In this document: positions 1 through 46,553 of the stretch, one piece after another
Position numbering within the stretch: the first letter of the stretch is position 1
Layout: each line of letters starts with the position of its first letter
Origin: Escherichia phage vB_EcoS_IME542
Direction: 5' to 3' (one strand)
Length of the DNA: 46,553 bases
Sequence record: MK372342
Translations under genes and position numbers: made by a program
Notes under the pieces: generated by a model
Database searches by the model: none
The model's input: only the letters and a program-made list of their open reading frames with translations
What the model was told of the DNA's origin: nothing

Positions 1-434
1 GCATCAGATGAGACCTGAGCACCAATAGCAGTAATTTCTCCAAATTGTGTGTTAACTCGGCTTACATCACTTGAAAATTTATCCTGATCAAAATCCTTAA
101 AAACATCAACTGCTGTTGCGACCTCTGATTCCATTGATTGATAGTAACGGAGAGTTTCAGCAACATCCTGAGCTAAACCCTGAACGGTAATTCCATCGTG
201 AGCAAGAATCGCGTAACCAGTTCCGGCAGGAACGGTATCAGAATTGGGGTTATAAACATTAATCTGAGTATCACTGATAATTTCAGAGATGGTGTAAATT
301 TGTACTGGTTCAGTTTTAAATACGATGGTTGCACCAACTCTAATCAGTGTAAGGGGCGCCTTCCATGTTGTCCCTACGCCAGTCACCTCGCCATTAGCGG
401 CCAGAGACGCTGTTCCTAAGTCATAAATTGCCAT
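1..434 (-). CDS. lateral tail fiber / tailspike, N-terminal part (start codon at 434..432; ORF runs off the window at position 1 and continues in frame at 46553)
   Basis: Hand translation of minus strand from ATG 434: MAIYDLGTASLAANGEVTGVGTTWKAPLTLIRVGATIVFKTEPVQIYTISE..., no stop to position 1; GGAG RBS 10 nt upstream; not in ORF track because it has no stop in window. Confidence 0.7.
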   Translation of the reverse strand, partial: MAIYDLGTASLAANGEVTGVGTTWKAPLTLIRVGATIVFKTEPVQIYTISEIISDTQINVYNPNSDTVPAGTGYAILAHDGITVQGLAQDVAETLRYYQSMESEVATAVDVFKDFDQDKFSSDVSRVNTQFGEITAIGAQVSSD

Positions 435-458
435 TGTGTAAAGTCTCCATTTGTAAAA

Positions 459-498: not shown

Positions 499-524
499 AT
501 AAAAAAACCTCCCGAAGGAGGTTA
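499..524 (-). terminator. rho-independent terminator after primase gene
   Basis: Minus strand reads AACCTCC-TTCG-GGAGGTT followed by TTTTTTT; overlaps stop codon. Confidence 0.7.
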
Positions 525-1445
525 ACTATTCAATAAATCACTCGCTTTATATATCTTCTTCCTGATACCGCTCTTGAATGAGTATTCATCATTTGGTATT
601 ACCACGTCAACGTTCCTGTCATCCGCAACGCAAAGCAATTCCCTATCAAGCTTGCATGCCACTCTCAGCTTGTAGTTTCTAAGCGCATAAGCAACCATCT
701 CCATGTTGTAGCTAGAGTGGCAAACAAGCACACAGCGTTTGCCAGTAGCAAGATGAACGCGAACACCATCAATCCAATTATCGACCAGATAAGCGTACTC
801 ATCATCTTTAAAGGTGCCAATAACAGCAATAGACTGGCGAGTATAATCTTTTGCAGCATAACTAACACCCCCTTCTTCATTGATAAACATTACATTGCAC
901 ATTTCTTCTGATATGCCGTCACTATAAGCCATAAAGCACGGCACTGCGTGTATTAGTTCGCCTGATTTTGTCCTGCCAGCATCAAAACCAAACTCGCTAT
1001 AAATACCCTCGTATATGCTGAGTGGAGTAGATTCTACTCTCTCAGTCCTTTCCATTATCTCCAGGCATCTTTCGTGATCAATCTGTGCGCCCATTTTGTA
1101 GAGCTGGGTTCTTGATGCTTGCTTGTTTGCTTTAACTATAACCTCAATTGGTGTTAAGTTCAGCCAGTCACCAAGCAAATTTACTGAATCGGCGAAGGAC
1201 GATCCAGTGCACTTCATGACCCATCCTATACCGGAGTCACTTCCGCATTTCGAACAAACTGCCGCGCCATTTCCTTTTTCACTGCCTATTTCGTCGGTAA
1301 ATCTGAATCTGTCAGTGCCAAAGCAGTATGGGCATGGTCCGTGCTTCTTACTTAGGTGTCTATCATTCCAACCAAGTTCCTTTGCATAAAATGATTTCCA
1401 CAATCCGGCCATCTTAGGTATAACTTCATTCTTATCGTAATTCAT
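522..1445 (-). CDS. DNA primase (zinc-ribbon, phage/plasmid primase type)
   Basis: N-terminal CPYCFGTDRFRF...CSKCG zinc-ribbon motif typical of P4/T7-type primase Zn-binding domains; 307 aa. Confidence 0.6.
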   Translation of the reverse strand: MNYDKNEVIPKMAGLWKSFYAKELGWNDRHLSKKHGPCPYCFGTDRFRFTDEIGSEKGNGAAVCSKCGSDSGIGWVMKCTGSSFADSVNLLGDWLNLTPIEVIVKANKQASRTQLYKMGAQIDHERCLEIMERTERVESTPLSIYEGIYSEFGFDAGRTKSGELIHAVPCFMAYSDGISEEMCNVMFINEEGGVSYAAKDYTRQSIAVIGTFKDDEYAYLVDNWIDGVRVHLATGKRCVLVCHSSYNMEMVAYALRNYKLRVACKLDRELLCVADDRNVDVVIPNDEYSFKSGIRKKIYKASDLLNS

Positions 1446-1936: not shown

Positions 1937-1966
1937 AAAAAAGGATGTACCGATTATGGCACATCC
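1937..1966 (-). terminator. terminator hairpin after HTH gene whose loop carries an extended -10-like TGcCATAAT for the downstream HNH gene
   Basis: Minus strand: GGATGT-gccataatcggt-ACATCC then TTTTTTATT. Confidence 0.5.
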
Positions 1967-1972
1967 AATTCC

Positions 1973-2446
1973 TTACTCTTTAGCTTTTCGTGCTGCTTCG
2001 TTGGCGGCTTTAATTTTTCGCCACGAACGACACTCTGGCTTAGTGGCCAGTTCAGCCTCTGTAACCACGCGCAGCATGTGACGCTTTTTGCAGCGCAGAG
2101 TTAGCGGCTTGCCATTGCCGTCGAATTGCAGGTCTGGTCGGCAGAATGTGGCTCGAAAGCCTTCTCCATTTCGCTTGTAGTAGTTGTGTGAAAGCTGAGC
2201 TCCACGTGCCGATATCATTCCGCGCTTAAACCATTCTTCTACAGCCTGCGGTGTCACCTTTAGCTGCTTTGCGATATTCGCCTTTGTGCCGAAGAAATCA
2301 AGAACAATCTCCAGTCGCGCGCGTAGCCCGGCTCTTACTTCATCTTTTAAAACGTAGTAACCCGATGGTCGTTTTCGTTGTTTTTTGTCTTCAGTGCGGA
2401 CAGTTCCGTTATTGCCGTTAATGGTTCGCTTATCAACTGCATTCAT
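1973..2446 (-). CDS. HTH DNA-binding protein (candidate transcription regulator)
   Basis: 157 aa, basic; helix-turn-helix-like segment ANIAKQLKVTPQAVEEWFKRG; GAGGTGA RBS. Confidence 0.45.
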   Translation of the reverse strand: MNAVDKRTINGNNGTVRTEDKKQRKRPSGYYVLKDEVRAGLRARLEIVLDFFGTKANIAKQLKVTPQAVEEWFKRGMISARGAQLSHNYYKRNGEGFRATFCRPDLQFDGNGKPLTLRCKKRHMLRVVTEAELATKPECRSWRKIKAANEAARKAKE

Positions 2447-2459
2447 TTAATCACCTCAA

Positions 2460-2501
2460 TAGCATTTTTTGTTAAACAATAGGTTCGATAATTGCTATTA
2501 T
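2460..2501 (+). promoter_or_regulatory. promoter for helicase operon: degenerate TAGCA box plus extended -10 TGcTATTAT (2493..2501); overlaps a divergent minus-strand -10
   Basis: TAGCAttttttGTTAA then TGCTATTAT read directly; divergent intergenic region 2447..2542. Confidence 0.5.
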
Positions 2502-2542
2502 ACAGCAATGCAACGAACTAACAAACAGCTAGGATATTTAAA

Positions 2543-4537
2543 ATGCTTCCAGTAGAGCGCTTAGTAGCCAACTTTGATCAAGAGAAGATTAAGCAGATTC
2601 AGAAGGATTATCAGTTTGGAGAAATCACGCCATACCCATTCCAGTGCGTGACATTCGACCAAATAGGTAAGCACATCGCTAAGTACGAAGCGCCATTCAT
2701 AGCAGACCTGTCGGTATCGGCAGGTAAGACAATCATTCTTGCCATGATTGGTAAACGCATGGAGCAGCTTGGCCTTCCTTACATGGTGCTTTCTCGCCAG
2801 TCAGAAATCATCAGCCAGAATGCTGAAGAACTCCGTAACTTCGGTATCCGTAATAGCGTATATTGCGCTGGCCTTAACGTTAAATCTGTTTACTACCCAA
2901 CTATAGTGGCAAGTGAAGGAACGGCGGCAAACGGCTTGTTCAAGGGGCTTGGTGACTATGTTCCGGCAGTTATCGCTATTGATGAGTGTCACATGCTAAA
3001 TCATATGGATATTGTCGAAGCCGAAGAGAACGAGGAAACGTTTGAGCAGATGAGCACCGCAAAAGGTGAGATGGTTTTCAAGGATGGTGAATACACGGGG
3101 TTAACTGGTACAGGTCGTTCGCAATACACTTTAATCATTACAGAGATGAAACGCCGTTGCCGTGAGAAATACAAGCGAGAACTACGTATCTTTGGTCTCA
3201 CTGGTAGCCCATACCGTGATAACAATCATATCGTGGTAAGTAATCCTAACATTCGAGGATTTTGGCGTAAGACGGTTATGCAGGTTCCAACCAATTACCT
3301 GGTGGATTTGGGTTTTGTTGTCCCAACTGTTTACGGTGAGGTTGGTGATTTGGGTTATGATCTTGCTGAATTTGCGCCAGATGGTGATGATGGAATCAAA
3401 GACTTCAGTAAGAAAGAAATGGATGCGATGCAGGAAAAAATTCATCAAAACCAGTCCATGACGCAAAAGATTATGCAGTTCGCAGCCAAGTTTATGGAAA
3501 CTCGTAACGCAGCGCTAGTAACTTGTTCAGGCAAGCGGCATTGCGAGGAGGCAGCCGCGGCGCTTCCTGATGGCGTAACCTGGGCTATAGTAACTGACTC
3601 TACTGGTGAGAAAAAACGTCGTGAGATTCTTTCTGACGCAGCTGAAGGTAAGTATAAATTCATCTTTCAGATTGGTTGTCTCACAACCGGCGTGAACGTC
3701 CCGCCATGGGATACGTCAATAATTCTTCGGAAGGTTGGAAGCATCACGTTATTGATTCAACTTTTGGGGCGAGGTATGCGGATTCTTAAGAAGAAGCATA
3801 AGGAAATGGGAATGGTTAAGGATGATCACGTGGTGCTGGACTTCGCTGGTACTCTTGATGATATGGCAGAATTGTACTTTGACCCAATTATAGAGGAGGT
3901 GCAAGACCAGAAATTCAAGTCTTCTAGTAAAGGTGGTGACGAGCCAAGGGTATGTCCAGCTTGTAGCTATGAGAACTCGCCATTTGCTCGTCGTTGTAAT
4001 AATGTTATCGAAGGTAAAAGGTGTGAGCACTTTTTTCAGTTTCGTACCTGTGATGATATTGAAGACACGCAGACAAAAGTTACTATTAAGAAAGGTTGTG
4101 GTGAGAAGAATGATATTGCTGCTAAAAACTGCCGTTGCTGCGGAGAAATGCTTATTGACCCTAACGCAAAGCTGTCTGGAAAGATGTATCGACAAGGGGA
4201 TTGGTTGAGAGTTTACGGATTCAGTATTGGGTTAACTAAAAACCAAAACGGGATCGTTGCTCGCTATGAAATCATGGCTCACAGCGGTGACAGGTTTGTT
4301 GCTTACGAAACTTTCTTTCCAGAGAGTGATCATCGCGTTTGCTCTGTGAAGTGGAAGGCGTTTTGCCAAACTCACATCGCTAACAAAACAGAAGCATTTC
4401 GCATCGGGAGACTGCGTAATGCAAGAATGATTATGACTAACGCAAGTCAATTTCGTGAGCCTTTGCGGGTGACTCATAGAAAAAATCAGAAAGGTCAGGA
4501 TATCATTGCAAACAAATCTTTTACTATGGAGGATTGA
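2543..4537 (+). CDS. SF2 (DExH-type) helicase with C-terminal zinc-ribbon region
   Basis: Walker A VSAGKT, motif II IDECH, C-terminal CPACSY...CRCCG cysteine pairs; 664 aa. Confidence 0.7.
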   Translation: MLPVERLVANFDQEKIKQIQKDYQFGEITPYPFQCVTFDQIGKHIAKYEAPFIADLSVSAGKTIILAMIGKRMEQLGLPYMVLSRQSEIISQNAEELRNFGIRNSVYCAGLNVKSVYYPTIVASEGTAANGLFKGLGDYVPAVIAIDECHMLNHMDIVEAEENEETFEQMSTAKGEMVFKDGEYTGLTGTGRSQYTLIITEMKRRCREKYKRELRIFGLTGSPYRDNNHIVVSNPNIRGFWRKTVMQVPTNYLVDLGFVVPTVYGEVGDLGYDLAEFAPDGDDGIKDFSKKEMDAMQEKIHQNQSMTQKIMQFAAKFMETRNAALVTCSGKRHCEEAAAALPDGVTWAIVTDSTGEKKRREILSDAAEGKYKFIFQIGCLTTGVNVPPWDTSIILRKVGSITLLIQLLGRGMRILKKKHKEMGMVKDDHVVLDFAGTLDDMAELYFDPIIEEVQDQKFKSSSKGGDEPRVCPACSYENSPFARRCNNVIEGKRCEHFFQFRTCDDIEDTQTKVTIKKGCGEKNDIAAKNCRCCGEMLIDPNAKLSGKMYRQGDWLRVYGFSIGLTKNQNGIVARYEIMAHSGDRFVAYETFFPESDHRVCSVKWKAFCQTHIANKTEAFRIGRLRNARMIMTNASQFREPLRVTHRKNQKGQDIIANKSFTMED

Positions 4538-4773
4538 TTATGAGTGCATTAGCTTTAGCTATAAAGGAAATGATTGAAGAAGACATAAAGAAAAGAAACT
4601 ATGAGACTATAATGTCCGTCTCTGATAATGTTTTTGAACATATACTATATCATGGGGTAACGAGCGAGGATTCCTGTTGTGCAGGTATGGTGTACAATGG
4701 CATTTACCTTAGTGAGCATGAAATAATCTCAGCTTACTTTTCTAGAAATCAAGATGCGGAACCATTATTTTGA
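4534..4773 (+). CDS. hypothetical protein
   Basis: 79 aa ORF, ATGA start/stop overlap with helicase gene. Confidence 0.4.
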   Translation: MIMSALALAIKEMIEEDIKKRNYETIMSVSDNVFEHILYHGVTSEDSCCAGMVYNGIYLSEHEIISAYFSRNQDAEPLF

Positions 4774-5189
4774 AAATCACAGATAAAGAAGATTACATTG
4801 AGTTTTACCCTGGTGCTGTAAAGTCATGCCCAAAGGAGGACGACGAACAGATCTTTTGCTCTGATTGGGTTAAGTATCATTACCCTCAGATTGTTTACTG
4901 GCACACAGTTAATGAAGGGATGAAATCAATTGGGTCAGCAAGGAAGGATGCAGCTAAAGGGCTCCTTAAGGGCGTATCAGACTGCTTATTCCTGATACCT
5001 GAATCACTTCGCGGAAAGTACCCTTTCGGAGCCATAGAGCTAAAGAGGGCTGGCAAAACCCAGGCTAGCACAGTCAGCGACGAACAAAAGTCTTTCCTTA
5101 AAAGCGTAAGAGAATCAGGTGGTTTCTCCGCTGTAGCCTATGGGCGCGAAGGTTTTCTTGCAGCATTCAAAGAAATGATTTCAAAATAG
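4770..5189 (+). CDS. VRR-NUC / PD-(D/E)XK-like nuclease
   Basis: D-x(n)-E-L-K arrangement (DCLFL...GAIELKRAGK); 139 aa; stop TAG lies inside the TAGCA box. Confidence 0.5.
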   Translation: MKITDKEDYIEFYPGAVKSCPKEDDEQIFCSDWVKYHYPQIVYWHTVNEGMKSIGSARKDAAKGLLKGVSDCLFLIPESLRGKYPFGAIELKRAGKTQASTVSDEQKSFLKSVRESGGFSAVAYGREGFLAAFKEMISK

Positions 5190-5247
5190 CACGAATTGCT
5201 AAAGACGAATTGGTGAGTTGGTGTATTATCAACTCATCGAAACGAAA
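5187..5247 (+). promoter_or_regulatory. boxed promoter element: TAGCAcgaatTGCTA, TGTATTAT -10, CATCGAAACGAAA leader
   Basis: Read directly; shares architecture with 14 other copies. Confidence 0.55.
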
Positions 5248-5267
5248 CAAGCAAAGAGAGAAAGAAA

Positions 5268-5462
5268 ATGGCTACTATCTATACTGGCAAAATGTACGAA
5301 TCACGCAAAACTGGTTATGTGTACGAGTTGGTTATCACTGAAGGCGGTTATGTGCTTGATGATAATTGTGGTTACTCATTCGAAGTTAGCCCAACCTACA
5401 AAGATGATTTAGAAACTGTTAAAAACGCATTCGGCGAAAAATTTGATGAGGTATCAGAATAA
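5268..5462 (+). CDS. hypothetical protein
   Basis: 64 aa, purine-rich RBS, downstream of boxed promoter. Confidence 0.5.
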   Translation: MATIYTGKMYESRKTGYVYELVITEGGYVLDDNCGYSFEVSPTYKDDLETVKNAFGEKFDEVSE

Positions 5463-5683
5463 TGGCTATCTTTACTTTTGAAAATCAATGGGAAGTGTTT
5501 AAGTTAATGGCAGTTCATGAGCTAAAGAAATCTGGTTATAACAAAAACCCATGGGACTTAGCACTTTGTCTTGATATGAGCTTTGAAGAAGATTATTTAA
5601 ATACCGATATTGATACATGGCGTGACCGTATAATTGCTGATATCGAAGAAATGAAAAAGGATTGCCTGGAGGATTTTGAGTGA
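5462..5683 (+). CDS. hypothetical acidic protein
   Basis: 73 aa ORF, start overlaps previous stop. Confidence 0.45.
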   Translation: MAIFTFENQWEVFKLMAVHELKKSGYNKNPWDLALCLDMSFEEDYLNTDIDTWRDRIIADIEEMKKDCLEDFE

Positions 5684-5808
5684 TGAAAATAGTAGACAAA
5701 GAGATGTTCGAGATTGCACAGGTTTACGCAAGTGACGCTGTTAAGACTCGATCAGAGTATTGCTGGATGTGCGCTCGAGAATACTTAAAAATGGCTTACG
5801 GCCTATGA
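5683..5808 (+). CDS. hypothetical small protein (41 aa)
   Basis: Hand-translated MKIVDKEMFEIAQVYASDAVKTRSEYCWMCAREYLKMAYGL; GGAGGA RBS; below ORF-track length cutoff. Confidence 0.35.
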   Translation: MKIVDKEMFEIAQVYASDAVKTRSEYCWMCAREYLKMAYGL

Positions 5809-6047
5809 TAGTTGAAACCGGACGCGCCGCTGTATGGGCGCACTGTGGAGAGGCGGGTTTGCAAGATGACATCAAGAAAATATCTAAATACTTCGATATT
5901 CAAGAAATCAGCGTTGTGTACGGCGGTAAATTTTCATATATACAAGATCGTCCAAGGAAATATGTGAGAGTTAAGCCTGGTGTGAGTATTGATGTTAACG
6001 ATTTCCTGAAATCTCAGGGATGCAAATTTAAGATAACGAAGGTTTAA
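5805..6047 (+). CDS. hypothetical protein (ATG 5805 preferred over track TTG 5760)
   Basis: ATGA overlap with preceding small ORF; 80 aa. Confidence 0.45.
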   Translation: MIVETGRAAVWAHCGEAGLQDDIKKISKYFDIQEISVVYGGKFSYIQDRPRKYVRVKPGVSIDVNDFLKSQGCKFKITKV

Positions 6048-6049
6048 AT

Positions 6050-6301
6050 ATGTTAGGTTTAGATTTTCAGCCAGAGCATTACGATTTAGTACATGGGCAA
6101 AGTGGAGCAAAGTTCAGAGCGATACCTATTGCTGACTGGTTTCCTCCTGATTATGTGGATGTGAACGCAAAAACTAAAGACGGAAAGTGGGTGCAGATTT
6201 ACTATTCTCCAGCTTGTGGAAACCTTTGCATGACTGACTTAGATCAGAAATTAGCAATTAGTGCTGAGATGATTGATTATTGGTTAAAAGAGGTTGAATG
6301 A
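6050..6301 (+). CDS. hypothetical protein
   Basis: 83 aa ORF, 2 nt after previous stop. Confidence 0.45.
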   Translation: MLGLDFQPEHYDLVHGQSGAKFRAIPIADWFPPDYVDVNAKTKDGKWVQIYYSPACGNLCMTDLDQKLAISAEMIDYWLKEVE

Positions 6302-6383
6302 GAGCACTAACACTAGTAGCATTAACACCACTGTTTAGCTTTATTATCTTATACTTTATCGTAATGAATTAAGGAACTTAAAA

Positions 6384-7514
6384 ATGGCAACTGCAAAAAT
6401 AACCAACGAACAGCTTCGTGAAGAACTAGCGAGCGGCATGACTAACAAAGCAATAGCAGAGAAGTACGGTATGAATATTCGCAATGTTGAATTGCGTCGT
6501 AGTAAGCTAGCTAAGGCTGGAGATGGGCACGGTAGAGATGTAAGCAACCTTATTCCTCAAGGTTATGCAGTTAAGGGTGTATCAAGTCTTATTGGTGCTG
6601 ATGGTGAGATTAAGCAGCAGTGGGTTAAGTCTGACATCGACAAAGAGAAGCAAGAAGAGATGATGTTTCAGGCTATTGAAGCGCTTACTGATGAATTGCC
6701 GCGCGAGAAGCCTAGAGCATTAAGAGTTGGTTTGTGGGAAGACACTTTAAGTCTTTATCCTGTTTTTGATATGCACATTGGAGCAATGGCGCACCATGCA
6801 GAATGCGGGGAGAATTACAGTACTGAAATCGCAGAGCGTGTCCTTAATGATTATTTTGATTACGCTGTTGCTAAGGCTCCTTGTTCTAAGAAAGCAGTAT
6901 TGCTGATTGGTGGCGACTTCCTCCACTCAGATGGATTGGAAGCTGTTACGCCTACTAGTCATCATGTGCTGGACCAGGATAGCCGATACCATAAGCTTGT
7001 TTACGTAGCGGTTCGAGCGACTCGGCGAGCAATTAGCCGGATGCTTGATAAGCATAAAGAAGTTGAAGTTCAGATTATTCCAGGTAACCACGACCTTTCG
7101 GGTATGATTTGGTTGCGTGCAGCAATGGCGGCATTCTATATGGATGAGCCAAGGGTAAATGTTGATGCTTCACCTGCTGCGTTGCACGTAACTCAGTTTG
7201 GCAAGACGCTTCTTGGATACTGTCATGGTCATGAGCTTCGCAAGCCAGATACTCGCTTATCAACTTTGGCACGTGACCACCGCAAGGCGTTTGGTGAATC
7301 AGAATATGTTTATACCCATTCGGGCCATTATCACCATCAAACGATTACAGAAGGTAACTTGGGTATTGATGAGTCTCATGGTCAGCTTGGTGCGAAAGAT
7401 GCTTACAGCGCAAACGGTGGTTATCGCTCTTATCGCCAGGCGTCTGTAATAATCTACAGCCCTAAATTCGGCGAGATTGGTCGATTCACTTGTCGCCCAG
7501 AAATGTTTAGCTAA
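6384..7514 (+). CDS. calcineurin-like metallophosphoesterase with N-terminal HTH-like domain
   Basis: Motifs DMHIG, GGDFLHSDG, IPGNHDL, GHYHH; N-terminal MTNKAIAEKYGMNIRNVELRRSKL. Confidence 0.6.
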   Translation: MATAKITNEQLREELASGMTNKAIAEKYGMNIRNVELRRSKLAKAGDGHGRDVSNLIPQGYAVKGVSSLIGADGEIKQQWVKSDIDKEKQEEMMFQAIEALTDELPREKPRALRVGLWEDTLSLYPVFDMHIGAMAHHAECGENYSTEIAERVLNDYFDYAVAKAPCSKKAVLLIGGDFLHSDGLEAVTPTSHHVLDQDSRYHKLVYVAVRATRRAISRMLDKHKEVEVQIIPGNHDLSGMIWLRAAMAAFYMDEPRVNVDASPAALHVTQFGKTLLGYCHGHELRKPDTRLSTLARDHRKAFGESEYVYTHSGHYHHQTITEGNLGIDESHGQLGAKDAYSANGGYRSYRQASVIIYSPKFGEIGRFTCRPEMFS

Positions 7515-7572
7515 TAGCACTTTTTGCATAACCAATGCCGTAGAAATGCGGCATAATCACCGCATCGAAACT
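7515..7572 (+). promoter_or_regulatory. boxed promoter element (TAGCActtttTGCAT, hairpin TGCCG/CGGCA, CATAAT, CATCGAAAC)
   Basis: Read directly. Confidence 0.5.
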
Positions 7573-7598
7573 AGATAAACTAAACGAGTAAACACAAA

Positions 7599-7775
7599 AT
7601 GACTAAAATGATTTATTGCACCAAAAACAATTCCAAGACCCTGCCATTTACAGTCAACCAGCCGTACAATGCAGAGTACCAAGGTGACGGATATTACAAG
7701 ATTTACGGCGACGATATGACGTGGATTTTAGCGCCGATTGATGGTTCGTTAGTTGAATTTATTATCGCAGATTAA
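7599..7775 (+). CDS. hypothetical small protein (58 aa)
   Basis: Hand-translated MTKMIYCTKNNSKTLPFTVNQPYNAEYQGDGYYKIYGDDMTWILAPIDGSLVEFIIAD; follows boxed promoter. Confidence 0.4.
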   Translation: MTKMIYCTKNNSKTLPFTVNQPYNAEYQGDGYYKIYGDDMTWILAPIDGSLVEFIIAD

Positions 7776-7797
7776 CACATCAAAAACATAGATTTGC

Positions 7798-7828
7798 AAG
7801 CGGGGGGCCTTTTGGCTCCCCTTTTTTG
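7798..7828 (+). terminator. rho-independent terminator
   Basis: GC-rich hairpin GGGGGGCC-tttt-GGCTCCCC followed by TTTTTTGTG. Confidence 0.6.
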
Positions 7829-7903
7829 TGCTTACAATCCACACTTGCCTACTGTATTATATTTACACTATCTATTGACAAATTAGGATTTAAAGGTGAT
7901 CAC

Positions 7904-8119
7904 GTGAGGGAAGTAATTAACGCCGCTACGGCATCAACAGGTGGGGCGGCTGTAACTGGCGCCGCAACTGGTCAAATGACAATCGCAATAATCAGCCTTA
8001 TAGCTCTTGTTGTTTTCGGGTTGTGGGGAGCTTACTGGAAGTTTAAGGATAGCCAGGCAATCAGGAAGGCGCTGGAGTCAGGAGATTTAAAAAAAGCTAT
8101 CAATATTAGGAGTAAGTAA
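7904..8119 (+). CDS. holin, pinholin-like (GTG start at 7904; ATG at 7976 is an alternative)
   Basis: Gly/Ala-rich weakly hydrophobic segment then TM helix MTIAIISLIALVVFGLWGAYW and charged C-terminus; immediately upstream of SAR endolysin; track start TTG 7826 lies inside the terminator. Confidence 0.55.
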   Translation: MREVINAATASTGGAAVTGAATGQMTIAIISLIALVVFGLWGAYWKFKDSQAIRKALESGDLKKAINIRSK

Positions 8120-8604
8120 TGAAGCAGAAGCTGGCAATTAGTGCAGCGACGGCAGCGGCAATATACATAGCAGCGCCGATTATTGAGCTTGTAGAGGGCG
8201 TTGAGTACAAGCCTTACATGGACATTGCAGGAATCCCTACGGTCTGTGCTGGCATTACTGGCCCTGATGTTGTATGGGGTAAGAGGTACAGTAACAGGGA
8301 GTGCCGGAATCTGCTTGAGAAGCACATTCAGATTCATGGGAAGTATGTTCAGGATGCGGTGACATACCCTATCTCTCCAGAAACAAGAGCGGCATTAATC
8401 AGTTTTAGTTATAACGTTGGCGGCTCTGCAATGAGGAAGTCCACGGCAGTAAGGTTTATTAACCAAGGTAAGATTGAGGAGGGTTGCAAGGCTCTCGGGA
8501 TGTGGAACAAGATAACCAAGAATGGTAAGAAGGTTGTCGTCAAGGGGCTCGTGAACAGGCGCAACGAGGAAATAAAATTATGCTTAAGTGGGGTTGGAAA
8601 ATGA
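8119..8604 (+). CDS. SAR endolysin (T4-lysozyme-like muramidase with N-terminal signal-anchor-release domain)
   Basis: N-terminal hydrophobic ISAATAAAIYIAAPII followed by E-x8-D-x5-T catalytic spacing (ELVEGVEYKPYMDIAGIPT). Confidence 0.8.
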   Translation: MKQKLAISAATAAAIYIAAPIIELVEGVEYKPYMDIAGIPTVCAGITGPDVVWGKRYSNRECRNLLEKHIQIHGKYVQDAVTYPISPETRAALISFSYNVGGSAMRKSTAVRFINQGKIEEGCKALGMWNKITKNGKKVVVKGLVNRRNEEIKLCLSGVGK

Positions 8605-8993
8605 AGGTTGTATTAATTGCTGCGGTGATTCTGCTTTCTGGTTGTTCGGCAACATCTGCGCTGACCGGGTTAATTGGTAGTAAACCAGAGATTAGTGCTC
8701 AGGCAGGTGCGGAGAACAATAAGGTTGGAGTTGGTTTAACGAGCAAGGTTGACTCCAGTAGCTCCAGTGAATCCACGGTTAAAGATTCCAAGGTTGGGTC
8801 GCTGGATAGCTCTAGCGGGAAAAAGACTTCTGACAACTCGATTAAGGCCTCAACAATCACTGCTGAGAAGATTGAAATCACCAACAATGATTCATCTGGA
8901 ATTTATGAATTACTGGCATTAATTGGGTTCCCTCTGTTAATTGTTTTTAATGGCTGCTATGTACTTTATAGAGCAAACAAAAAAGCCCCGTAA
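8601..8993 (+). CDS. unimolecular spanin (N-terminal lipoprotein signal plus C-terminal TM helix)
   Basis: MKVVLIAAVILLSGC lipobox and C-terminal LLALIGFPLLIVFNGCYVLY; ATGA overlap with endolysin stop; architecture of the phage T1 u-spanin. Confidence 0.7.
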   Translation: MKVVLIAAVILLSGCSATSALTGLIGSKPEISAQAGAENNKVGVGLTSKVDSSSSSESTVKDSKVGSLDSSSGKKTSDNSIKASTITAEKIEITNNDSSGIYELLALIGFPLLIVFNGCYVLYRANKKAP

Positions 8994-9008
8994 TGGGGCT
9001 ATTTTTAT
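8975..9008. terminator. bidirectional terminator between convergent spanin and minus-strand genes
   Basis: GCCCC-gtaat-GGGGC flanked by A-run and T-run. Confidence 0.6.
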
Positions 9009-9340
9009 GCAAATAATTCTTCGTCATTCATGTTTGCTATTTTCATCATCTCATTCACATAGGCACTAGACTTACCTTCAAAGCTCATAAATTCAAACTG
9101 GAATGGCCTTTTGCTCGAGCCTTTAGACCAGTACACACCATTAACTCCATCAAGATACCCAGCCGTAAGCATTCTCGCCATAAACTCCTTCGAGCAACTC
9201 GATGCAAAATATCTTTCATCAACCCCCGCAGCTTTAGCAATCCTTGCACAATCCTTGTGCTTGTAGATGAATCTTGCGAGGTGTTGGCGGTTGAAGTTTT
9301 TGCATCCTTCGCAGAACCTGTACACGTCGAGAAGAAACAT
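9005..9340 (-). CDS. hypothetical protein
   Basis: 111 aa ORF, last gene of minus-strand early block. Confidence 0.45.
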   Translation of the reverse strand: MFLLDVYRFCEGCKNFNRQHLARFIYKHKDCARIAKAAGVDERYFASSCSKEFMARMLTAGYLDGVNGVYWSKGSSKRPFQFEFMSFEGKSSAYVNEMMKIANMNDEELFA

Positions 9341-9343
9341 AGG

Positions 9344-10927
9344 TTACCCCAGCAGTCTTGGATTGATGTAAATTTTATCACCAATCAGGCACGTATAGTT
9401 TTTTTCGTCCAGCATCGGAATCAAATGGTCCTTAATACGAGTCATGATTCCAGCTTGAGCTTCAAAAGGTTTAACCTTTCGCGCAGCTTCATACAATGAG
9501 CGAACACCAACGACACCCTTACCATTTTTTCCTTGCTTAATCAGAATATCAACCAGCTTATTCATCTCAGCATTATCACCGGCGTGACCAGCGGCACTAG
9601 CGGATGACAAATAAGTCTTGCTTAGTTCGTTAAAAATCATAACCGCCTCCTGCATTGTCTCAAGCTCAATCTCCCTGGACTTCTGGGGGCTCGACCCTGC
9701 TGGTGCGAACCAGTTACGAATAACGTGCAGCACAGAGGCGATACGAATTGCTTGCTTATCAAACTTACCTAGAGCGCCACGTAACATTGTGTGAGAGTAC
9801 TTACCACCATCACCAAGGTGCGGTTCCATTTCCTGACGCGCGCGGTTCAGGTAACACATTGAAGAGGCACTTACAGTTAGTTTCACTTCGACTTCACTCA
9901 TAATCTCATGAACGAGACGGAAGTAATCAGCCTTCAGCCCACCGTCAATAGCCTCATATGTTGAGTCACCATTCTCGTCAACAAACACGCGGTCTCCAAG
10001 GAATGACTTCTCACGCACAAGCAAGAAACGTTCTGACACACCGATACCACGCGCACCAGCATTCATGATCGCGTTGATGGTCTCATCCTGTGCGATAACA
10101 GAGATGCAGCCCATAGCGACAAAGCTCATGTTATTTTCAGCGTTCGCACGCGCAATAGAAACGTTACCAGCATCCCATGCTTTCAGCACAAGCTCGCTGT
10201 TCGTTTTCTTTGAGCCATCACCATAGGTCATGCCAAGTAGTGAGTTTACGCTCGTTGCCTCATCAGAGATTACTGCGAAGTTGCCCTGTCGGTTGTTTAT
10301 TCGCGCAAGACCTTCCGGCGTGGTGTCGGATACGGGGAAAACGATATCGCACAGCTTTTCCAGCTTCTCTTCTAAATCTTCTTTTTCCTCAAAAAGTGAA
10401 GCCATCTCTGACGGAGATTTTTCCTGCTTCATCTCTTTGGATAATGCAGATAGTTTGGCAATAATCTTTTTGCGCTCGCGCTTTCGCACTTCATTAATCC
10501 GCTCAGTCTCAGCAATCATTGGGGCAATTGAAAGCGAGTTAATTGCTGATTTACCAGTTGATGGTGGCTGGCTTGTTACGACGTAGAGCGCGGTTGGCTG
10601 CTGATTTCCGTGATACTCAACAGTAAATCGACCAAGCATGGCGGCAGAAATGCACCCCAGAAAGTGCATATAAGCTGAAGACTCAGGGAATTGAACCGAA
10701 CGAGCAATGTTAGCTGATAACTTGCCCACAACATCAATATCATTACCTAGTGAGATTACAGGGTACTTATCATTTGCAGCATCAATCTCGACCGGAGCCT
10801 TCCAGAATGATTGGGACTGTCGATAACCATTAGCATTAATAGCCACGCGAAGCGGTGGAAGGTTGTCGGTCGCAGCAATTGCCATAACCTGCTCAACAGA
10901 TAGTTTATCTTCGTTGAAATCAAACAT
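9344..10927 (-). CDS. P-loop NTPase, putative replication-associated ATPase (deviant Walker A QPPSTGKS)
   Basis: Walker A-like PPSTGKSA and Walker B-like AVISDEAT; ATG 10927 with GGAG RBS preferred over track GTG 10969; 527 aa. Confidence 0.5.
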   Translation of the reverse strand: MFDFNEDKLSVEQVMAIAATDNLPPLRVAINANGYRQSQSFWKAPVEIDAANDKYPVISLGNDIDVVGKLSANIARSVQFPESSAYMHFLGCISAAMLGRFTVEYHGNQQPTALYVVTSQPPSTGKSAINSLSIAPMIAETERINEVRKRERKKIIAKLSALSKEMKQEKSPSEMASLFEEKEDLEEKLEKLCDIVFPVSDTTPEGLARINNRQGNFAVISDEATSVNSLLGMTYGDGSKKTNSELVLKAWDAGNVSIARANAENNMSFVAMGCISVIAQDETINAIMNAGARGIGVSERFLLVREKSFLGDRVFVDENGDSTYEAIDGGLKADYFRLVHEIMSEVEVKLTVSASSMCYLNRARQEMEPHLGDGGKYSHTMLRGALGKFDKQAIRIASVLHVIRNWFAPAGSSPQKSREIELETMQEAVMIFNELSKTYLSSASAAGHAGDNAEMNKLVDILIKQGKNGKGVVGVRSLYEAARKVKPFEAQAGIMTRIKDHLIPMLDEKNYTCLIGDKIYINPRLLG

Positions 10928-10939
10928 CTTAATACTCCA

Positions 10940-11000
10940 TCTCGTTAATATGCGGGCATTATATAACACCCGCTCAGTATGTCTTTATCTTTTAGTGCTA
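10940..11000 (-). promoter_or_regulatory. boxed promoter element (degenerate box, -10 TATAAT within hairpin loop GCGGG/CCCGC)
   Basis: Minus strand reads TAGCACTAAAAGATA ... GAGCGGG-tgttatataat-GCCCGC ... AACGAGATGGAG. Confidence 0.45.
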
Positions 11001-11354
11001 TTATGAGTATTTTGCTTCAAACCTGTAGTCGCCACAGATAGTAACAAATCCAACATCCTCATCCCTATATAGCTGCCAGGCGGTTCCTTCTTTGTCATAG
11101 ATATATCCAGCGCGCTGACCAAGTCCAGCATGGATATCAACTTGATATCGCTTTCCTTCAGTGAAGTATTTGCGAATAGATGAGTGATGGTTAACCTTTG
11201 TACAATATAGAGTCTTGGTCTTGATGTATTTTCCGCGCTCTGTAAGATTCTGCCATTTTCCATTAACCTTAATCTGCTCTACACCATCTTTAACGCGGGC
11301 CTTGAACAAATTGTTATCGCTTGATACCCAGTTTTTTGTAATCGTAGTAGTCAT
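11001..11354 (-). CDS. hypothetical protein
   Basis: 117 aa ORF. Confidence 0.45.
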   Translation of the reverse strand: MTTTITKNWVSSDNNLFKARVKDGVEQIKVNGKWQNLTERGKYIKTKTLYCTKVNHHSSIRKYFTEGKRYQVDIHAGLGQRAGYIYDKEGTAWQLYRDEDVGFVTICGDYRFEAKYS

Positions 11355-11580
11355 TTTAAGCCCTCTCTTTCGTTTTCCACATGAATTTGTTAGGTACTGA
11401 TTTGCGCACGATGCGCACGACTATCTTATCTGTCTTTTGTACCAGTCCGTAAATCTTGCCATCAAGTGACGCGCGGTACACTGCCTCTTCCATTGCGTCA
11501 CAAAAGTTGTCGAACATTAGTGAGCCTTACAGTTGCTAGAAAATTTAGCACCAGCAAACTTTGAAGGGCCGCGGTTAGCG

Positions 11581-12914: not shown

Positions 12915-13204
12915 TTGCGTTCGATGTATGCATTAATTTCTTCAGAAGTTTCCATTGCGGAGCGGAAAGCGCCTTTTGCGTGGCGAGCATCACGGAATGA
13001 CTGGAAGAATTTACGAGCAACGTTTGCGAACATCGCGCCAGTTATACGAGCATCACCGAAATTAGTTTCGATTGAGTTACTGATGCCATCACGGAACTCA
13101 TTCTCAGTCATGAACATTTCAGCAATTTCAGCGGTGGCGAAAAGGTCTGCCAGTGATTGCATATTTTCGTGGTCAGCTTTAGTGAAAAGGTTCATGTTAA
13201 TCAT
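12899..13204 (-). CDS. hypothetical protein; C-terminus NSTNC-stop encoded by the palindromic box
   Basis: 101 aa; GGAGA RBS; first gene of minus-strand early block. Confidence 0.5.
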   Translation of the reverse strand: MINMNLFTKADHENMQSLADLFATAEIAEMFMTENEFRDGISNSIETNFGDARITGAMFANVARKFFQSFRDARHAKGAFRSAMETSEEINAYIERNSTNC

Positions 13205-13221
13205 TTTCGTGTCTCCGTGAG

Positions 13222-18053: not shown

Positions 18054-18155
18054 ATGAGTAATATTATTGCTACAATTATCTTTGGTGCCACTTTGCCTTT
18101 CATTTGTTCTAGGTGTGGTATGGTTACTAACTTTACTAGGATTCTAATAACATGA
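18054..18155 (+). CDS. hypothetical small membrane peptide (33 aa)
   Basis: MSNIIATIIFGATLPFICSRCGMVTNFTRILIT; strong GAGGAGG RBS; ATGA overlap with next gene. Confidence 0.4.
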   Translation: MSNIIATIIFGATLPFICSRCGMVTNFTRILIT

Positions 18156-18658
18156 GCAAAGTAGCGTTAAAGATGGGCGAGGGGAATTTCAAGGCGCTCT
18201 ACAACAAGAAGTATGGCGATATTGCTATGGTGGCAATCAATCGCAAGTACACGCCAGAAGAGGTGTTTGATTTCGCGGTGAGATACTTCTCATGGGCTGA
18301 GAGTGAGGCAATCAAAGCTATTGAGACGGCGGCTTTCCGGGGAGTTGTTAGTGAAAACCTTGTACATAAGCCGAGAGTATTCACATTAACCGGCCTGGCG
18401 CTATTCATGGGTGTCAATATCAATAGATTCGCCAGCTGGCGTACTGAGGCTGGTTACTCTGACGTGATGGAATTTATTGATAACGTAATCTACGAGCAAA
18501 AATATCAGCTTGGCGTTGCGGGTATCATCAACCCCACAATCGTTGGTAAAGAGCTAGGGATTGATAAGCCGCAGGAGATTACCATTAGCAACAACTCCAC
18601 AGCTAACGACGTTGATAGCATGAAGGAAGCGCTGGAGTCTGTGATTAGCAAGCTGTAA
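18152..18658 (+). CDS. terminase small subunit (putative)
   Basis: 168 aa gene immediately upstream of terminase large subunit; call is positional. Confidence 0.5.
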   Translation: MSKVALKMGEGNFKALYNKKYGDIAMVAINRKYTPEEVFDFAVRYFSWAESEAIKAIETAAFRGVVSENLVHKPRVFTLTGLALFMGVNINRFASWRTEAGYSDVMEFIDNVIYEQKYQLGVAGIINPTIVGKELGIDKPQEITISNNSTANDVDSMKEALESVISKL

Positions 18659-18676: not shown

Positions 18677-20251
18677 ATGACTGATGTTTTAGTTTGGGAG
18701 GAACTATCCCAATCAGAGAAACAGGCGATTAAGCTACTATCCACCCACAACTTCGAAACATTCCTTCGTGTGTGGTTCAGCATCACGCAAGGGCAGAAGT
18801 ATATAATGAACTGGCATCATAGATACCTATGCAGGATTGTTGATGAGATTATTAGCGGAGAGCGAAAGGATACAATCATAAATGTATCACCTGGCGCCGG
18901 AAAAACCGAAATCACGTCCATTCACTTTCCTGTTTATAGTTACCTCAAGCTACCAAAAGTTCGTAACCTTAGCCTGTCATTCTCTGATAGCCTGGTCAAG
19001 CGAAACTCTAAGCGAGTTAGGGACCTTATTAAATCAATGGAGTTCCAGGAGTTATTCCCAAGCAGGTTCGGTACGTGTAAGGATGACGAGATTCAGGTGC
19101 TTGATGAATCAGGAAAGGTTAGATTTGAGTCAATATCAAAGGCTATTGGAGGGCAAATAACCGGATCGAGAGGTGGTTACATTACGGATACTTATAGCGG
19201 CTGCCTGATGCTGGATGACGTTGATAAAGTTGATGACATGCTTAGCAAGGTGAGGCGTGAAGCAGTACATATGCTTCTAAAGAACACAATTCGCTCTCGT
19301 CGGGCAAGTTCGGTAAAAGGAAAAGCAACACCAATTATATCAATACAGCAGCGATTGCATGTGAACGATAGCTCGTGGTTCATGGCTGAATCTGGGGGTA
19401 TGGGTATAGATTTCGATGTTGTGAAGATTCCAGCGATAGTTACTGAGGATTACATCGACACGCTCCCTGACTGGCTAAAGCCACACTTCGAGGCTGATGT
19501 TCTATCTAGCGAGTACATCGAGCGAGATGGGGTTAAATACTACAGCTACTACCCACAGAAGGAATCCATTCATGATTTAATGGCAATGCAGGACGCGGAC
19601 CCATATACGTTCGCAAGCCAATATATGCAAAGCCCAATAGCTCTCGGTGGCAACATGATTGATACGGATTGGTTTATTCGTTACGGTGGGGATTTGCGAG
19701 CGCCATTAAAGTATGACTACCGATTCATCACTGCGGATACCGCGCTCACGACTAAGTCGTACAGTGACTTTAGCGTGTTCCAGTTGTGGGGCGTTAAGGA
19801 TAGAAAGCTATACCTTCTTGATATGGTTAGGGGTAAGTATGAGGCACCGGAACTCGAGGCAACACTATTGGACTTTGAGGCCAAAGCAAGAGCCACTAGT
19901 CGAGAGGAGGGGATACTTCGCAAGGTAATAATCGAGAAGAAAGCGTCAGGTATCGGCTTAATTCAATCTGCAAGTAGGGTTATGCGCACACCGATTGAGC
20001 CATTTATACCAGATACAGACAAGGTAACTCGCGTACTTTCTGCCATGCCTCAGATTAAGGCTGGCAATGTCATGATACCAGAGTCAGCGCCGTGGATGAG
20101 TGCACTCATCTCTGAGTTTTCAGCATTTACAGCAGACCTATCTCACCGCCATGATGACATTGTAGACACAACAACCATGGCAATAAACTGTGAGCTAAAT
20201 TTAGCCGACGATGCAAAACTAAGAATGCTGCGCCTTGCTGGGATTAAGTAG
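18677..20251 (+). CDS. terminase large subunit
   Basis: 524 aa; Walker A-like VSPGAGKTE, Walker B-like CLMLDDVDK; position before portal. Confidence 0.8.
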   Translation: MTDVLVWEELSQSEKQAIKLLSTHNFETFLRVWFSITQGQKYIMNWHHRYLCRIVDEIISGERKDTIINVSPGAGKTEITSIHFPVYSYLKLPKVRNLSLSFSDSLVKRNSKRVRDLIKSMEFQELFPSRFGTCKDDEIQVLDESGKVRFESISKAIGGQITGSRGGYITDTYSGCLMLDDVDKVDDMLSKVRREAVHMLLKNTIRSRRASSVKGKATPIISIQQRLHVNDSSWFMAESGGMGIDFDVVKIPAIVTEDYIDTLPDWLKPHFEADVLSSEYIERDGVKYYSYYPQKESIHDLMAMQDADPYTFASQYMQSPIALGGNMIDTDWFIRYGGDLRAPLKYDYRFITADTALTTKSYSDFSVFQLWGVKDRKLYLLDMVRGKYEAPELEATLLDFEAKARATSREEGILRKVIIEKKASGIGLIQSASRVMRTPIEPFIPDTDKVTRVLSAMPQIKAGNVMIPESAPWMSALISEFSAFTADLSHRHDDIVDTTTMAINCELNLADDAKLRMLRLAGIK

Positions 20252-20880: not shown

Positions 20881-22137
20881 ATGGTAAAAACAGACAGCTA
20901 CGCCAATATCTTTCTTGGCGGCAGTGATGGTAGTGAGATTTACGGAAGTTTACAGAATCAAGCGCCTACAATTCTGGCTTCGCTTTATGCGGATAATGCA
21001 ATTGTGCGTCGAATTATTGACACAATCCCAGAGACGGCACTAGCAGCAGGATTCCACATTGACGGTATTGATGACGAACCCGCATTCTGGTCTCGCTGGG
21101 ACGATTTGGAGATGACGCAGAATATTAACGACGCTTGGTCGTGGGCCAGATTATTCGGCGGTTCTGCCATTGTAGCTATCGTTAAGGACAATAGAGCGCT
21201 AACAAGTCCGGTCAGAGAAGGTTCTGAGCTTGAAACTGTTCGCGTTTACGACCGTACGCAGGTAAAAGTACAGACTCGCGAAGAGAATCCGCGCAACGCA
21301 CGTTTCGGTAAGCCGCTAACCTATCGCATCACTACTAACGAGAGTGAAATGTTCTACGACGTACACTACAGCCGCATTCATATCATCGATGGTGAGCGAA
21401 TCCCTAACGTAATGCGTAGGCAGAATGATGGCTGGGGTCGTAGCGTTCTATCCAGTGACATTCTTGACTCAATCAAGGATTACACTAACTGCGAGCGACT
21501 CGCCACGCAATTACTTAGACGTAAACAGCAGGCAGTGTGGAAAGCGAAAGGGCTGGCTGAGTTATGTGATGATAGCGAGGGGTTTGGCGCTGCAAGATTA
21601 CGACTAGCGCAGGTTGACAATAATAGCGGCGTTGGTCAGGCAATTGGTATTGATGCCGAATCTGAAGAGTATAGCGTTCTCAACTCTGATATTGGCGGTA
21701 TTGATGCGTTCCTGGATAAGAAGTTTGACAGAATCGTTGCTCTGAGCGGCATTCATGAAATCATCCTGAAGAACAAGAACGTTGGTGGCTTATCATCCAG
21801 CCAGAATACGGCGCTTGAGACATTCCACAAGTTGATTGACCGTAAGCGCAACGCTGAACTACTGCCAATTCTTGAGTTCTTAATCCCGTTCATCGTAAAC
21901 GCAGAAGAATGGTCAGTTGAGTTTAACCCTCTAGCCCAGGAATCAAGCAAGGACAAGGCAGAAGTTTTGGAGAAGAACGTAAACAGCATCGCAGCACTAA
22001 TTGCATCTGGCGCTATGGATACCAATGAGGCACGTGATACACTACGAGCTATCGCACCAGAGATTAAGATTGGTGATAATGATATTCAGTTCGAGCAATC
22101 GGATTTAATTACAGAGACGGAGGTTGTAATTGCGTAA
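20881..22137 (+). CDS. portal protein (putative)
   Basis: 418 aa gene directly after terminase module; call is positional and by size. Confidence 0.6.
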   Translation: MVKTDSYANIFLGGSDGSEIYGSLQNQAPTILASLYADNAIVRRIIDTIPETALAAGFHIDGIDDEPAFWSRWDDLEMTQNINDAWSWARLFGGSAIVAIVKDNRALTSPVREGSELETVRVYDRTQVKVQTREENPRNARFGKPLTYRITTNESEMFYDVHYSRIHIIDGERIPNVMRRQNDGWGRSVLSSDILDSIKDYTNCERLATQLLRRKQQAVWKAKGLAELCDDSEGFGAARLRLAQVDNNSGVGQAIGIDAESEEYSVLNSDIGGIDAFLDKKFDRIVALSGIHEIILKNKNVGGLSSSQNTALETFHKLIDRKRNAELLPILEFLIPFIVNAEEWSVEFNPLAQESSKDKAEVLEKNVNSIAALIASGAMDTNEARDTLRAIAPEIKIGDNDIQFEQSDLITETEVVIA

Positions 22138-44477: not shown

Positions 44478-44507
44478 AAAAACCCCGCATAGGCGGGGTT
44501 TTTTTAT
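44478..44507. terminator. bidirectional rho-independent terminator between convergent ssb and tailspike genes
   Basis: A-run, CCCCGC-atag-GCGGGG, T-run. Confidence 0.75.
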
Positions 44508-44509: not shown

Positions 44510-46553
44510 TTAAAAGTTTCTATATACCTCAGTCCACCCCTCTGGCTCTATTAACTCAACCATAATAATGTGTCTAGTTGATTTCAAGGCCACGTCTACT
44601 CCTCCTTTCATATAAAAACTTGAACTAGATTTTAATGTCAAAGTGTTTGATGCAGAAGCTGATGAACTCCTTATTTGTATTTGCATCCCGGCTTCCTCAG
44701 TGTAGCCAGTTATTCCATCTACACTAGAGCTTGCACTATGAGTTAATCTATATTTATTACCGGGATTTGTATTAAATTGTATCTTCTGGTTACTTCCCGA
44801 AACGGTCACATTAACGACAGGATTAATTAATACTCTCGCTAACTGCTTAGTAAACTCAGTTCGACCAACCCCAGAGTTTGGCATTACGGAGTTCCCAATA
44901 TCAAGGTCTGTAGTTCGCGTTGTGTAGTTACGAAGAGCAGTGGTGTTAACTGCAATGTTTTCCACCCACTGGTTACTACCGCCGCCCGCCTCAATATCTA
45001 CCCCACCTGTTTGCGTGGTGTTAAGAAGATAAAACATATTAGAAAAACTAGCATCTTGGCTTCCACATGTATTACCAATAACGCGACATGATGAAAGGCT
45101 GCCTTGTATAAAGAATGCAGCTAAAGGGATGCTTCCGACAGTAATCCAGTCTTCCATGTTGTAATCGTCACTACCATTGAACCCAGCATCAACATGATTA
45201 TCCCTAATGATCATGTTAGGGTTGTTGTTTGTTCCAGAATAATGCCCAATAAAAAACCCACCACGACGTATCCTATTGCCATGACACAACACATGACCTG
45301 CATTTGAACCACCAGTAATTCGAATTCGCCCGTACTCAATTGCGTTATCGCGAATTGTGATTGATGCGGTCGTCAAGTTTGACGCAACAGTTTGCAGTGT
45401 TACACCGCCTCTTATCGTGGCTGTTCCTTCGTACAATGGCTCACACTCGTAAGGGTTGGTTACTGGGATAACTCCAGCACTGCGGAATGTATTGTCATGG
45501 ATTTCCACATACTGCATATTCTGGCCTGACGAGTTTGGTTCTAGATCTATTTCTCCGTAAATAATATTGTCATGTACTTTCAGGCCTACGACGTCGATAA
45601 CAGCCATTGCCAAACGGGATCGTGTGCCGCCACCTGATGCGTCCCAGGATCGAATGCCGTTGCCGTAACGCTCCTTAAGTATGCAATTCCTTACTGTTAC
45701 ATCTCTAGAGAATTTTCCTGTTATTGCGCCATTCTCAAGATCTCCACCAAAATAGATGCAGTCACCGTAGAAGTTATCAATGTAAACATTATCGAAAATG
45801 ACGCTCTTGCATTTATAACCCAACGCGAATGCCTGGTCTCTTTCTCGAGAGGGCGAAGTAGCACCGCCACCGTAACCTATCACCTTCATATTTCGGATGA
45901 TAACGTTGTTCGCAGCATAAAGCCCGAACAATCTTCCAATATCATCGCAATAGAGTTCGGTTGAGAATCCATCCCCCTCAATAATTACATTCTTTAAACC
46001 TGCACCCTCAACACCTAAAGTAACAGCTACGCCACCTGGCTTGTATGTGTTTAGACGCTTAAATCTAAACTTCCCTGACGGGAATCTTAATGTCACATTA
46101 CCTCCGTTGGAAATAACATCATTGATTGCTTCCTGAAGTGCAGTGACGTTATTTGTTCCGTTAGATACGCCAGTGGTGGGATCAAAGTCACCAACAAGAC
46201 CGTAATCTGTAACAAGGTTAATAACTGTATTCTGGTAAAAATCAGCAATCGTAGTCGATAAGTTTGATGTAAGACCGCCCCTTTTCAAATTAATGAGTTC
46301 ACCTCCTCTCTCGGACAAATCATTAATTATTTTTGAGTCAGTCTCATCCCTGGAGTAAACATCAAGGTTCTGCCTTGCTAGTGGCTTGTCAGTTAAGTCT
46401 GATAGCGCCAAGTCTTTTCTTAATAGGTTCTGTATGTCAAGTGACGCCGCATAATCTGCCGCCTCCCGCGCTGATGCAGCTGCCGCATCTTTGTCAGCGG
46501 ATGCGCTGGTTGCACTTGCTGCCGCTGCATTCTTATCGGTGGTCACTTTGGCG
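44510..46553 (-). CDS. lateral tail fiber / tailspike, C-terminal part with predicted beta-helix (pectate-lyase-like) glycan-depolymerase domain; 5' end continues across window edge to 434..1
   Basis: Frame is open to position 46553 (track start 46546 is an internal GTG); Ala-rich N-proximal segment with KPLARQNLDVY; recurring beta-strand motifs (VIIRNM, VTVRNC, ITIRDN, MIIRDN). Confidence 0.75.
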   Translation of the reverse strand, partial: AKVTTDKNAAAASATSASADKDAAAASAREAADYAASLDIQNLLRKDLALSDLTDKPLARQNLDVYSRDETDSKIINDLSERGGELINLKRGGLTSNLSTTIADFYQNTVINLVTDYGLVGDFDPTTGVSNGTNNVTALQEAINDVISNGGNVTLRFPSGKFRFKRLNTYKPGGVAVTLGVEGAGLKNVIIEGDGFSTELYCDDIGRLFGLYAANNVIIRNMKVIGYGGGATSPSRERDQAFALGYKCKSVIFDNVYIDNFYGDCIYFGGDLENGAITGKFSRDVTVRNCILKERYGNGIRSWDASGGGTRSRLAMAVIDVVGLKVHDNIIYGEIDLEPNSSGQNMQYVEIHDNTFRSAGVIPVTNPYECEPLYEGTATIRGGVTLQTVASNLTTASITIRDNAIEYGRIRITGGSNAGHVLCHGNRIRRGGFFIGHYSGTNNNPNMIIRDNHVDAGFNGSDDYNMEDWITVGSIPLAAFFIQGSLSSCRVIGNTCGSQDASFSNMFYLLNTTQTGGVDIEAGGGSNQWVENIAVNTTALRNYTTRTTDLDIGNSVMPNSGVGRTEFTKQLARVLINPVVNVTVSGSNQKIQFNTNPGNKYRLTHSASSSVDGITGYTEEAGMQIQIRSSSASASNTLTLKSSSSFYMKGGVDVALKSTRHIIMVELIEPEGWTEVYRNF

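Follow-up and report, generated by a model that had tools for sequence, protein, structure and literature searches.

The window analyzed here, by which we mean the whole stretch of 46,553 nucleotides, begins and ends inside one and the same gene. On the minus strand an open reading frame starts with the ATG at 434-432 and reaches base 1 after 144 codons, leaving the two bases GC of an unfinished codon. The complement of base 46553 completes this codon to GCC (Ala, codon 145), and past the junction the same minus-strand frame remains free of stops until the TAA at 44510-44512. When 46553 is joined to 1, the restored reading frame encodes 825 amino acids and its product reads ...AIGAQVSSDAAKVTTDKNAAAASATSA... 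across the junction. Translation of the joined ends bears out the original prediction that the frame opened at 434 continues through GCC into 44510..46553 and that the product runs smoothly across the join; the length, which had been put at about 826 residues, is corrected to 825. The gene encodes a lateral tail fiber protein. Its 5' part specifies most of the conserved N-terminal anchor to the virion, while the 3' part specifies an Ala-rich linker, the end of the anchor (to residue ~215-225) and a β-helix receptor-binding module (residues ~226-825).

Several sequence elements frame this gene. A Shine-Dalgarno-like motif precedes the start codon, and a terminator-like hairpin, AACCTCCTTCGGGAGGTT followed by a T-run, separates it from the primase gene (522-1445, minus strand); the same terminator arrangement between primase and tail fiber genes has been described in SU57 (PMC7718038). 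At the other end a strong hairpin flanked by an A-run and a T-run, possibly a bidirectional terminator, lies between the tail fiber stop codon and a convergent gene for a single-stranded DNA-binding (SSB) protein (44045-44473, plus strand). The SSB-like protein carries a Gln-rich tract near its C-terminus, encoded by a run of CAA/CAG codons at 44360-44440 (plus strand) directly before the ...DDIPF tail. The coordinates of these and other features of the window are collected in Table 1.

Table 1 Features of the window (positions refer to the 46,553-nucleotide stretch)
Feature	Position	Strand	Remarks
Lateral tail fiber gene, 5' part	1..434	-	ATG 434-432, codons 1-144, first two bases of codon 145 (translation)
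Lateral tail fiber gene, 3' part	44510..46553	-	third base of codon 145, codons 146-825, TAA 44510-44512
Shine-Dalgarno-like GGAG	445..448	-	10 nt upstream of ATG 434; read from sequence
Terminator-like hairpin with T-run	506..523	-	between primase and tail fiber genes
Region homologous to the TR1 pac segment	13266..13647		79% identity; TR1 3615 corresponds to window ~13427
tRNA-Arg (anticodon TCT), single, upstream of terS	17666-17740	+	
Small terminase subunit (TerS)	18152..18658	+	PF16677 GP3_package, E 9e-13 (P22 gp3 family); phrog_606
Large terminase subunit (TerL)	18677..20251	+	PF17289; phrog_38; 97% aa identity to phiA2-1, ~50-57% to other T1-like phages
Portal protein	20881..22137	+	Pfam and PHROG matches
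Strong hairpin, possible bidirectional terminator	44478..44503		between SSB gene and tail fiber stop codon

Two unrelated ends would be joined in frame by chance about once in three cases, and it is therefore the homology evidence that carries the weight for the junction. The record of phage TR1 (OP087522.1) contains the 3 kb around the junction as one unbroken match of 99.7% identity (15628-18627), and at this locus TR1 is annotated with an 825-residue 'tail fiber protein' showing 7 residue differences from the joined product of the window. An exact 120-mer spanning the junction occurs inside 11 independent public assemblies, among them TR1 and near-identical sister genomes. Comparison with the loci of closely related sister contigs gave gap-free alignments of 99.7-99.8% identity over the joined window, from 11445 to 1 and from 46553 to 37075, a span that takes in positions 1950-11445, where TR1 is only 65-88% identical. 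The gap-free sister alignments, the exact 120-mer and the return of the reading frame to the 825 residues of TR1 agree that the two ends adjoin directly, with no base lost or added between them. An exact junction 44-mer was not found among IMG/VR viral contigs or JGI metagenome contigs, the lineage being present instead in Logan and NCBI data. Neither the joined 825-residue protein nor the window helicase was found by exact look-up; the lack of an identical tail fiber record is to be expected if the source contig was opened within the tail fiber gene.

The sister contigs also establish the completeness of the sequence. Several SRA runs yielded contigs of 46,560-46,669 bp that carry exact copies of the window TerL, primase and exonuclease, as does NZ_VSMK01000220.1, and on each of these contigs a single uninterrupted 825-residue tail fiber gene is called. 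The full-length contigs of 46,560-46,669 bp are opened at positions corresponding to window ~7229, ~17694, ~21815 and ~43141, and VSMK01000220.1 is opened inside the ERF recombinase gene. The first and last 127 nt of VSMK01000220.1 are identical, so that its unit measures 46,542 bp; an exact end overlap of 127 nt is the mark that an assembler working at k=127 leaves on a circular contig. For the Logan contig SRR26268151_6565, mapping of the coordinates of the 46,571-bp Logan contigs, as distinct from a direct k-mer match of the ends, suggests an end overlap of about 30 nt. Outside a region at ~28.3-32.0 kb the sisters (NZ_VSMK01000220.1 and Logan contigs of the SRR26268xxx and SRR22796xxx series) share 99.4-100% identity with the window over ~42 kb and have a unit length within ~12 bp of it, and they resemble it further in being circular assemblies with an intact tail fiber gene, while differing in the allele of that region and in their opening positions. 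Against TR1, the window maps in strict order to 17127 down to 1 and then to 44099 down to 17128, thereby covering the map exactly once, and self-BLAST of the window revealed no terminal direct repeat between its ends. Colinearity with TR1 round the full circle together with the lack of a terminal repeat indicates that the window holds exactly one unit length (46,553 bp). These results confirm that the window is one complete copy of the genome, a circular assembly linearized in codon 145 of the tail fiber gene. The earlier proposals that the window is a whole genome whose ends join, and that this genome was opened inside the tail fiber gene, are thus upheld by the gap-free sister junctions, the differently opened sister contigs, the 127-nt overlap and the TR1 colinearity, and by a restored reading frame that matches the TR1 gene in length. 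The term circular describes the assembly map; the virion DNA of Drexlerviridae is linear.

The window is the genome of a virulent T1-like siphovirus of Escherichia coli, belonging to the Drexlerviridae, subfamily Braunvirinae, near the genus Christensenvirus. All of its nearest relatives are Drexlerviridae/Braunvirinae. Genomes of this family measure 43-52 kb and have a conserved gene order and core genes (PMC8594841). The window, at 46,553 bp, falls in this range, and T1-type holin, portal, major capsid, gpJ and DUF6453 proteins were found. The window itself yielded TerS, TerL, portal, gpJ, primase and DUF6453; the T1-type holin and the remaining capsid, tail, lysis and replication functions were assigned from the nearly identical sister contigs.

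The comparison with TR1 (Drexlerviridae, Braunvirinae, Christensenvirus) reveals a mosaic. The two genomes share gene order round the entire circle, but TR1 measures 44,099 bp, its record is cut beside terS, outside any gene, and it has no match to a gene at 24120-25163 or to part of the 15-16 kb region of the window. From ~32000 through 46553 and 1 to ~1950, a block of 16.5 kb, the window is ~99.7% identical to TR1. This block covers the distal tape measure, tail tip, gpJ, recombination genes, SSB, lateral fiber, primase and an HNH gene, whereas the remaining ~30 kb are 64-88% identical or without a match. The block points to a very recent exchange of a large module between otherwise distinct phages. 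A further patch at ~28.0-32.2 kb takes in the tail chaperone genes and the stretch coding for the N-terminal portion of the tape measure. It shares 96% identity with IME253, phiA2-1 and ZL19, and would come from a third donor to the mosaic; the different sister allele mentioned above falls here. Within INPHARED, no record exceeded ~83% identity over window positions 4000-28999, which argues for a new mosaic genome at the species level. The phage is a new member of the Braunvirinae.

Other differences from TR1 were also observed. The gene at 24120-25163 (plus strand) encodes 347 residues and stands between the decoration/cement protein and major capsid genes; its equivalent on sister contigs matches PF00657/PF13472 (GDSL/SGNH lipase-esterase), and the call in the window is made by this equivalence. 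The counterpart of the window tRNA-Arg (TCT) is annotated in the TR1 record as tRNA-Arg-CCT. In TR1 an HNH homing endonuclease gene lies between terS and terL (43000-43506). It is absent from the corresponding position in the window (18658-18677); the window, like its sisters, has an HNH gene just after terL (20312-20836).

The terminase genes bear on how such a genome would be packaged. TerS belongs to the P22 gp3 family and TerL to the phrog_38/T1-like group, and both are homologous to the terminases of a clade shown experimentally to package by headful. T1 and TLS are reported to start headful packaging at pac, and their DNA to be terminally redundant and partly circularly permuted (PMC11447400). 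Circular permutation is supported for SU57, and cos ends were excluded there by experiment (PMC7718038). For TR1, PhageTerm analysis indicated headful packaging and placed the first cut (pac) at 3615 (PMC10450929). The window resembles T1, TLS and SU57 in genome size, in module order and in a block of small reading frames between the non-coding pac region and terS-terL. These phages nevertheless belong to other subfamilies or genera, are far apart from it in DNA, and had their packaging determined experimentally, while ours is deduced. The TerL identity of ~50-57% with T1-like phages refers to tunus, NBD2 and vB_Henu5_2, and not to T1, TLS or SU57 themselves. On family membership and homology, both read from sequence alone, we infer, in line with the original proposal of a headful-type genome, pac-type headful packaging of this genome, with terminal redundancy and permutation. 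The position equivalent to the TR1 pac, ~13427, falls in a divergent non-coding region of ~700 nt (13204-13889), 4.7 kb upstream of terS, with leftward genes ending at 13204 and rightward genes starting at 13889. The first packaging cut is therefore expected, from this homology, at ~13.4 kb, and the mapping of the TR1 pac to this place implies that the window ends are not physical termini.

Taken together, we consider it very likely that the window represents one unit length of a headful-packaging T1-like phage, its circle cut inside the tail fiber gene. The contiguity of the ends, the completeness and the circular sister assemblies were observed directly, and family membership would supply the mechanism and the place of the pac cut. 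The DNA of phages of this family replicates as concatemers, on which the terminase makes a first cut at pac and later cuts by headful. Their virions contain linear DNA, terminally redundant and partly circularly permuted, and shotgun reads of such permuted DNA assemble to a circle without true ends. An assembler or depositor would have linearized this circle at an arbitrary point, which happened to be codon 145 of the 825-residue fiber gene. The observation of a gene wrapped across the ends is thus confirmed and its reading supported; a mid-gene opening is an ordinary outcome of Drexlerviridae DNA packaging and no novel biological feature.

Other explanations of the wrapped gene were weighed. 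An incomplete or chimeric linear contig whose ends meet in frame only by accident has in its favor the one-in-three prior for in-frame ends and the mosaic nature of the genome, since misassembly could in principle produce a composite of three or more sources, as is seen here. An accident of this kind would not place the exact junction 120-mer in 11 independent assemblies, nor both flanks (1950-11445 and 37075-46553) without gaps at 99.7-99.8% identity within single sister contigs; nor would it restore a gene of exactly the TR1 length or leave the whole circle colinear with TR1 and the sister genome. The contiguity of the junction in independent assemblies effectively refutes this reading, to which we attach almost no probability. 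Just as hard to credit is a truly circular replicon, a plasmid-prophage or excised prophage in place of a virion genome. The assembly is circular and the lineage does occur as a contig in a bacterial genome assembly, yet that contig stands free as a circular 'NODE_2' without host flanks, in a sulfate reducer that is an implausible host. The gene content and order are those of virulent T1-like phages, and among the Pfam assignments of the genes called on the sister contigs there is no integrase or partition gene.

Somewhat less remote, though still improbable, is a genome that has fixed physical ends at some place in the map, either cos or exact direct terminal repeats, the circle having arisen from ligated or repeat-collapsed ends. 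A circular assembly alone cannot separate headful genomes from those with direct terminal repeats or cos ends, and no distinct sub-molar pac fragment was obtained from SU57 (PMC7718038). Against such ends stand the P22 gp3 type of TerS (PF16677) and the headful packaging reported for the closest characterized relatives, namely TR1 by PhageTerm, TLS and T1 by restriction mapping, and SU57 by the exclusion of cos. Fixed terminal repeats and cos are absent from the window ends, as self-BLAST and the tail fiber gene spanning them indicate, a result that covers the window ends only.

The divided gene encodes a protein of composite architecture. Residues 1 to ~180 match many tail fiber PHROG families, and residues 1-175 match the N-terminus of solved depolymerases (PDB 7vyv, 7vz3 and 7lzj), which we take to be capsule depolymerase tailspikes of Webervirus, phages of Klebsiella. 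About 100 homologs align only to the first ~210-250 residues, while 17 others align only from residue ~211-235 onward, and this split coverage places a domain-swap boundary at residue ~215-225. The context of the locus is the same as in AugustePiccard, TR2 and BEK3, with the gene beside the primase. Lateral fibers of Drexlerviridae are encoded beside the primase and consist of a conserved far N-terminus followed by a hypervariable distal part (PMC8594841); with its conserved N-terminal anchor, variable distal part and primase-adjacent position, the window fiber fits this description.

A Pfam scan of the tail fiber, including its C-terminal 600 residues, identified no domain, and its fold was accordingly approached through structure prediction. 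The C-terminal module of 600 residues has only 23 relatives among 5.8 billion proteins, and these carry differing N-terminal anchors (PF18668, PF09008 or none); the module is rare and horizontally exchanged. An AlphaFold2 model of mean pLDDT 82.8 is almost entirely β-strand and predicts a right-handed parallel β-helix. Foldseek matched it to AlgE4/AlgE6 epimerases, GH110 galactosidases and the Sf6, HK620, CBA120 TSP3 and Pam1 tailspikes with E-values of 1e-9 to 1e-4, at 9-15% sequence identity. The O-antigen tailspikes Sf6, HK620 and CBA120 TSP3 and the Webervirus depolymerases thus share with the window protein the predicted right-handed β-helix of the C-terminal module, and the depolymerases also share the N-terminal ~175 residues as homologous sequence, but the β-helix of the window belongs to no detectable common sequence family with either. 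The model accordingly predicts a tailspike-type lateral tail fiber and not a simple fiber. Such a protein most probably binds a surface glycan as primary receptor, in agreement with the role proposed for Drexlerviridae lateral fibers (PMC8594841), and may cleave or modify that glycan; invariant acidic residues in the alignment are candidate catalytic residues only.

The point at which the record was opened merits separate consideration. Megablast matches of AugustePiccard, TR2, BEK2/3 and SU57 stop 0-4 nt from the junction. In the alignment, DNA conservation ends right after ...TCATCTGATGC (VSSDA) and gives way to the variable Ala/Ser-rich linker. The opening therefore coincides with the 3' edge of a lateral-fiber DNA block conserved in Braunvirinae (...GTCTCATCTGATGC, encoding VSSDA). 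An opening at a boundary between protein modules was considered and rejected; that boundary lies at residue ~215-225 and the junction at residue 145, ~70 codons apart. By a rough estimate an opening would meet the edge of DNA conservation by chance in ~3% of cases. Chance may account for the coincidence, or the opening may reflect a branch point in the assembly graph. It is conceivable, though we regard it as unlikely, that the opening was not arbitrary at all: the edge would be a preferred recombination boundary for swaps of receptor-binding modules, variants co-circulating in the sample would have produced the branch in the graph, and together with the 16.5-kb TR1-like block this would speak for recent exchange of large modules. 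If so, T1-like phages occurring as contaminants of laboratory and fermentation cultures of E. coli would have exchanged large modules very recently. The main conclusion is untouched by this question.

Annotators should handle the window as a complete circular map and merge the fragments at its ends into one 825-residue gene instead of listing them as two truncated reading frames. The topology itself is routine and unsurprising, with a physical packaging start expected near 13.4 kb. The rare β-helix module and the contaminant contigs may be of modest use in studies of phage host range and in the tracking of contamination. The free circular contig 'NODE_2' (NZ_VSMK01000220.1) comes from the assembly of the sulfate reducer Nitratidesulfovibrio liaohensis XJ01, and the lineage is also present in many SRA runs, as Logan contigs from SRR26268xxx, SRR22796xxx and SRR186826xx. 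These occurrences most likely reflect contamination by a T1-like coliphage. As a consequence of the phage contig in the N. liaohensis assembly, RefSeq lists the tail fiber as a protein of that bacterium (WP_208294706.1).
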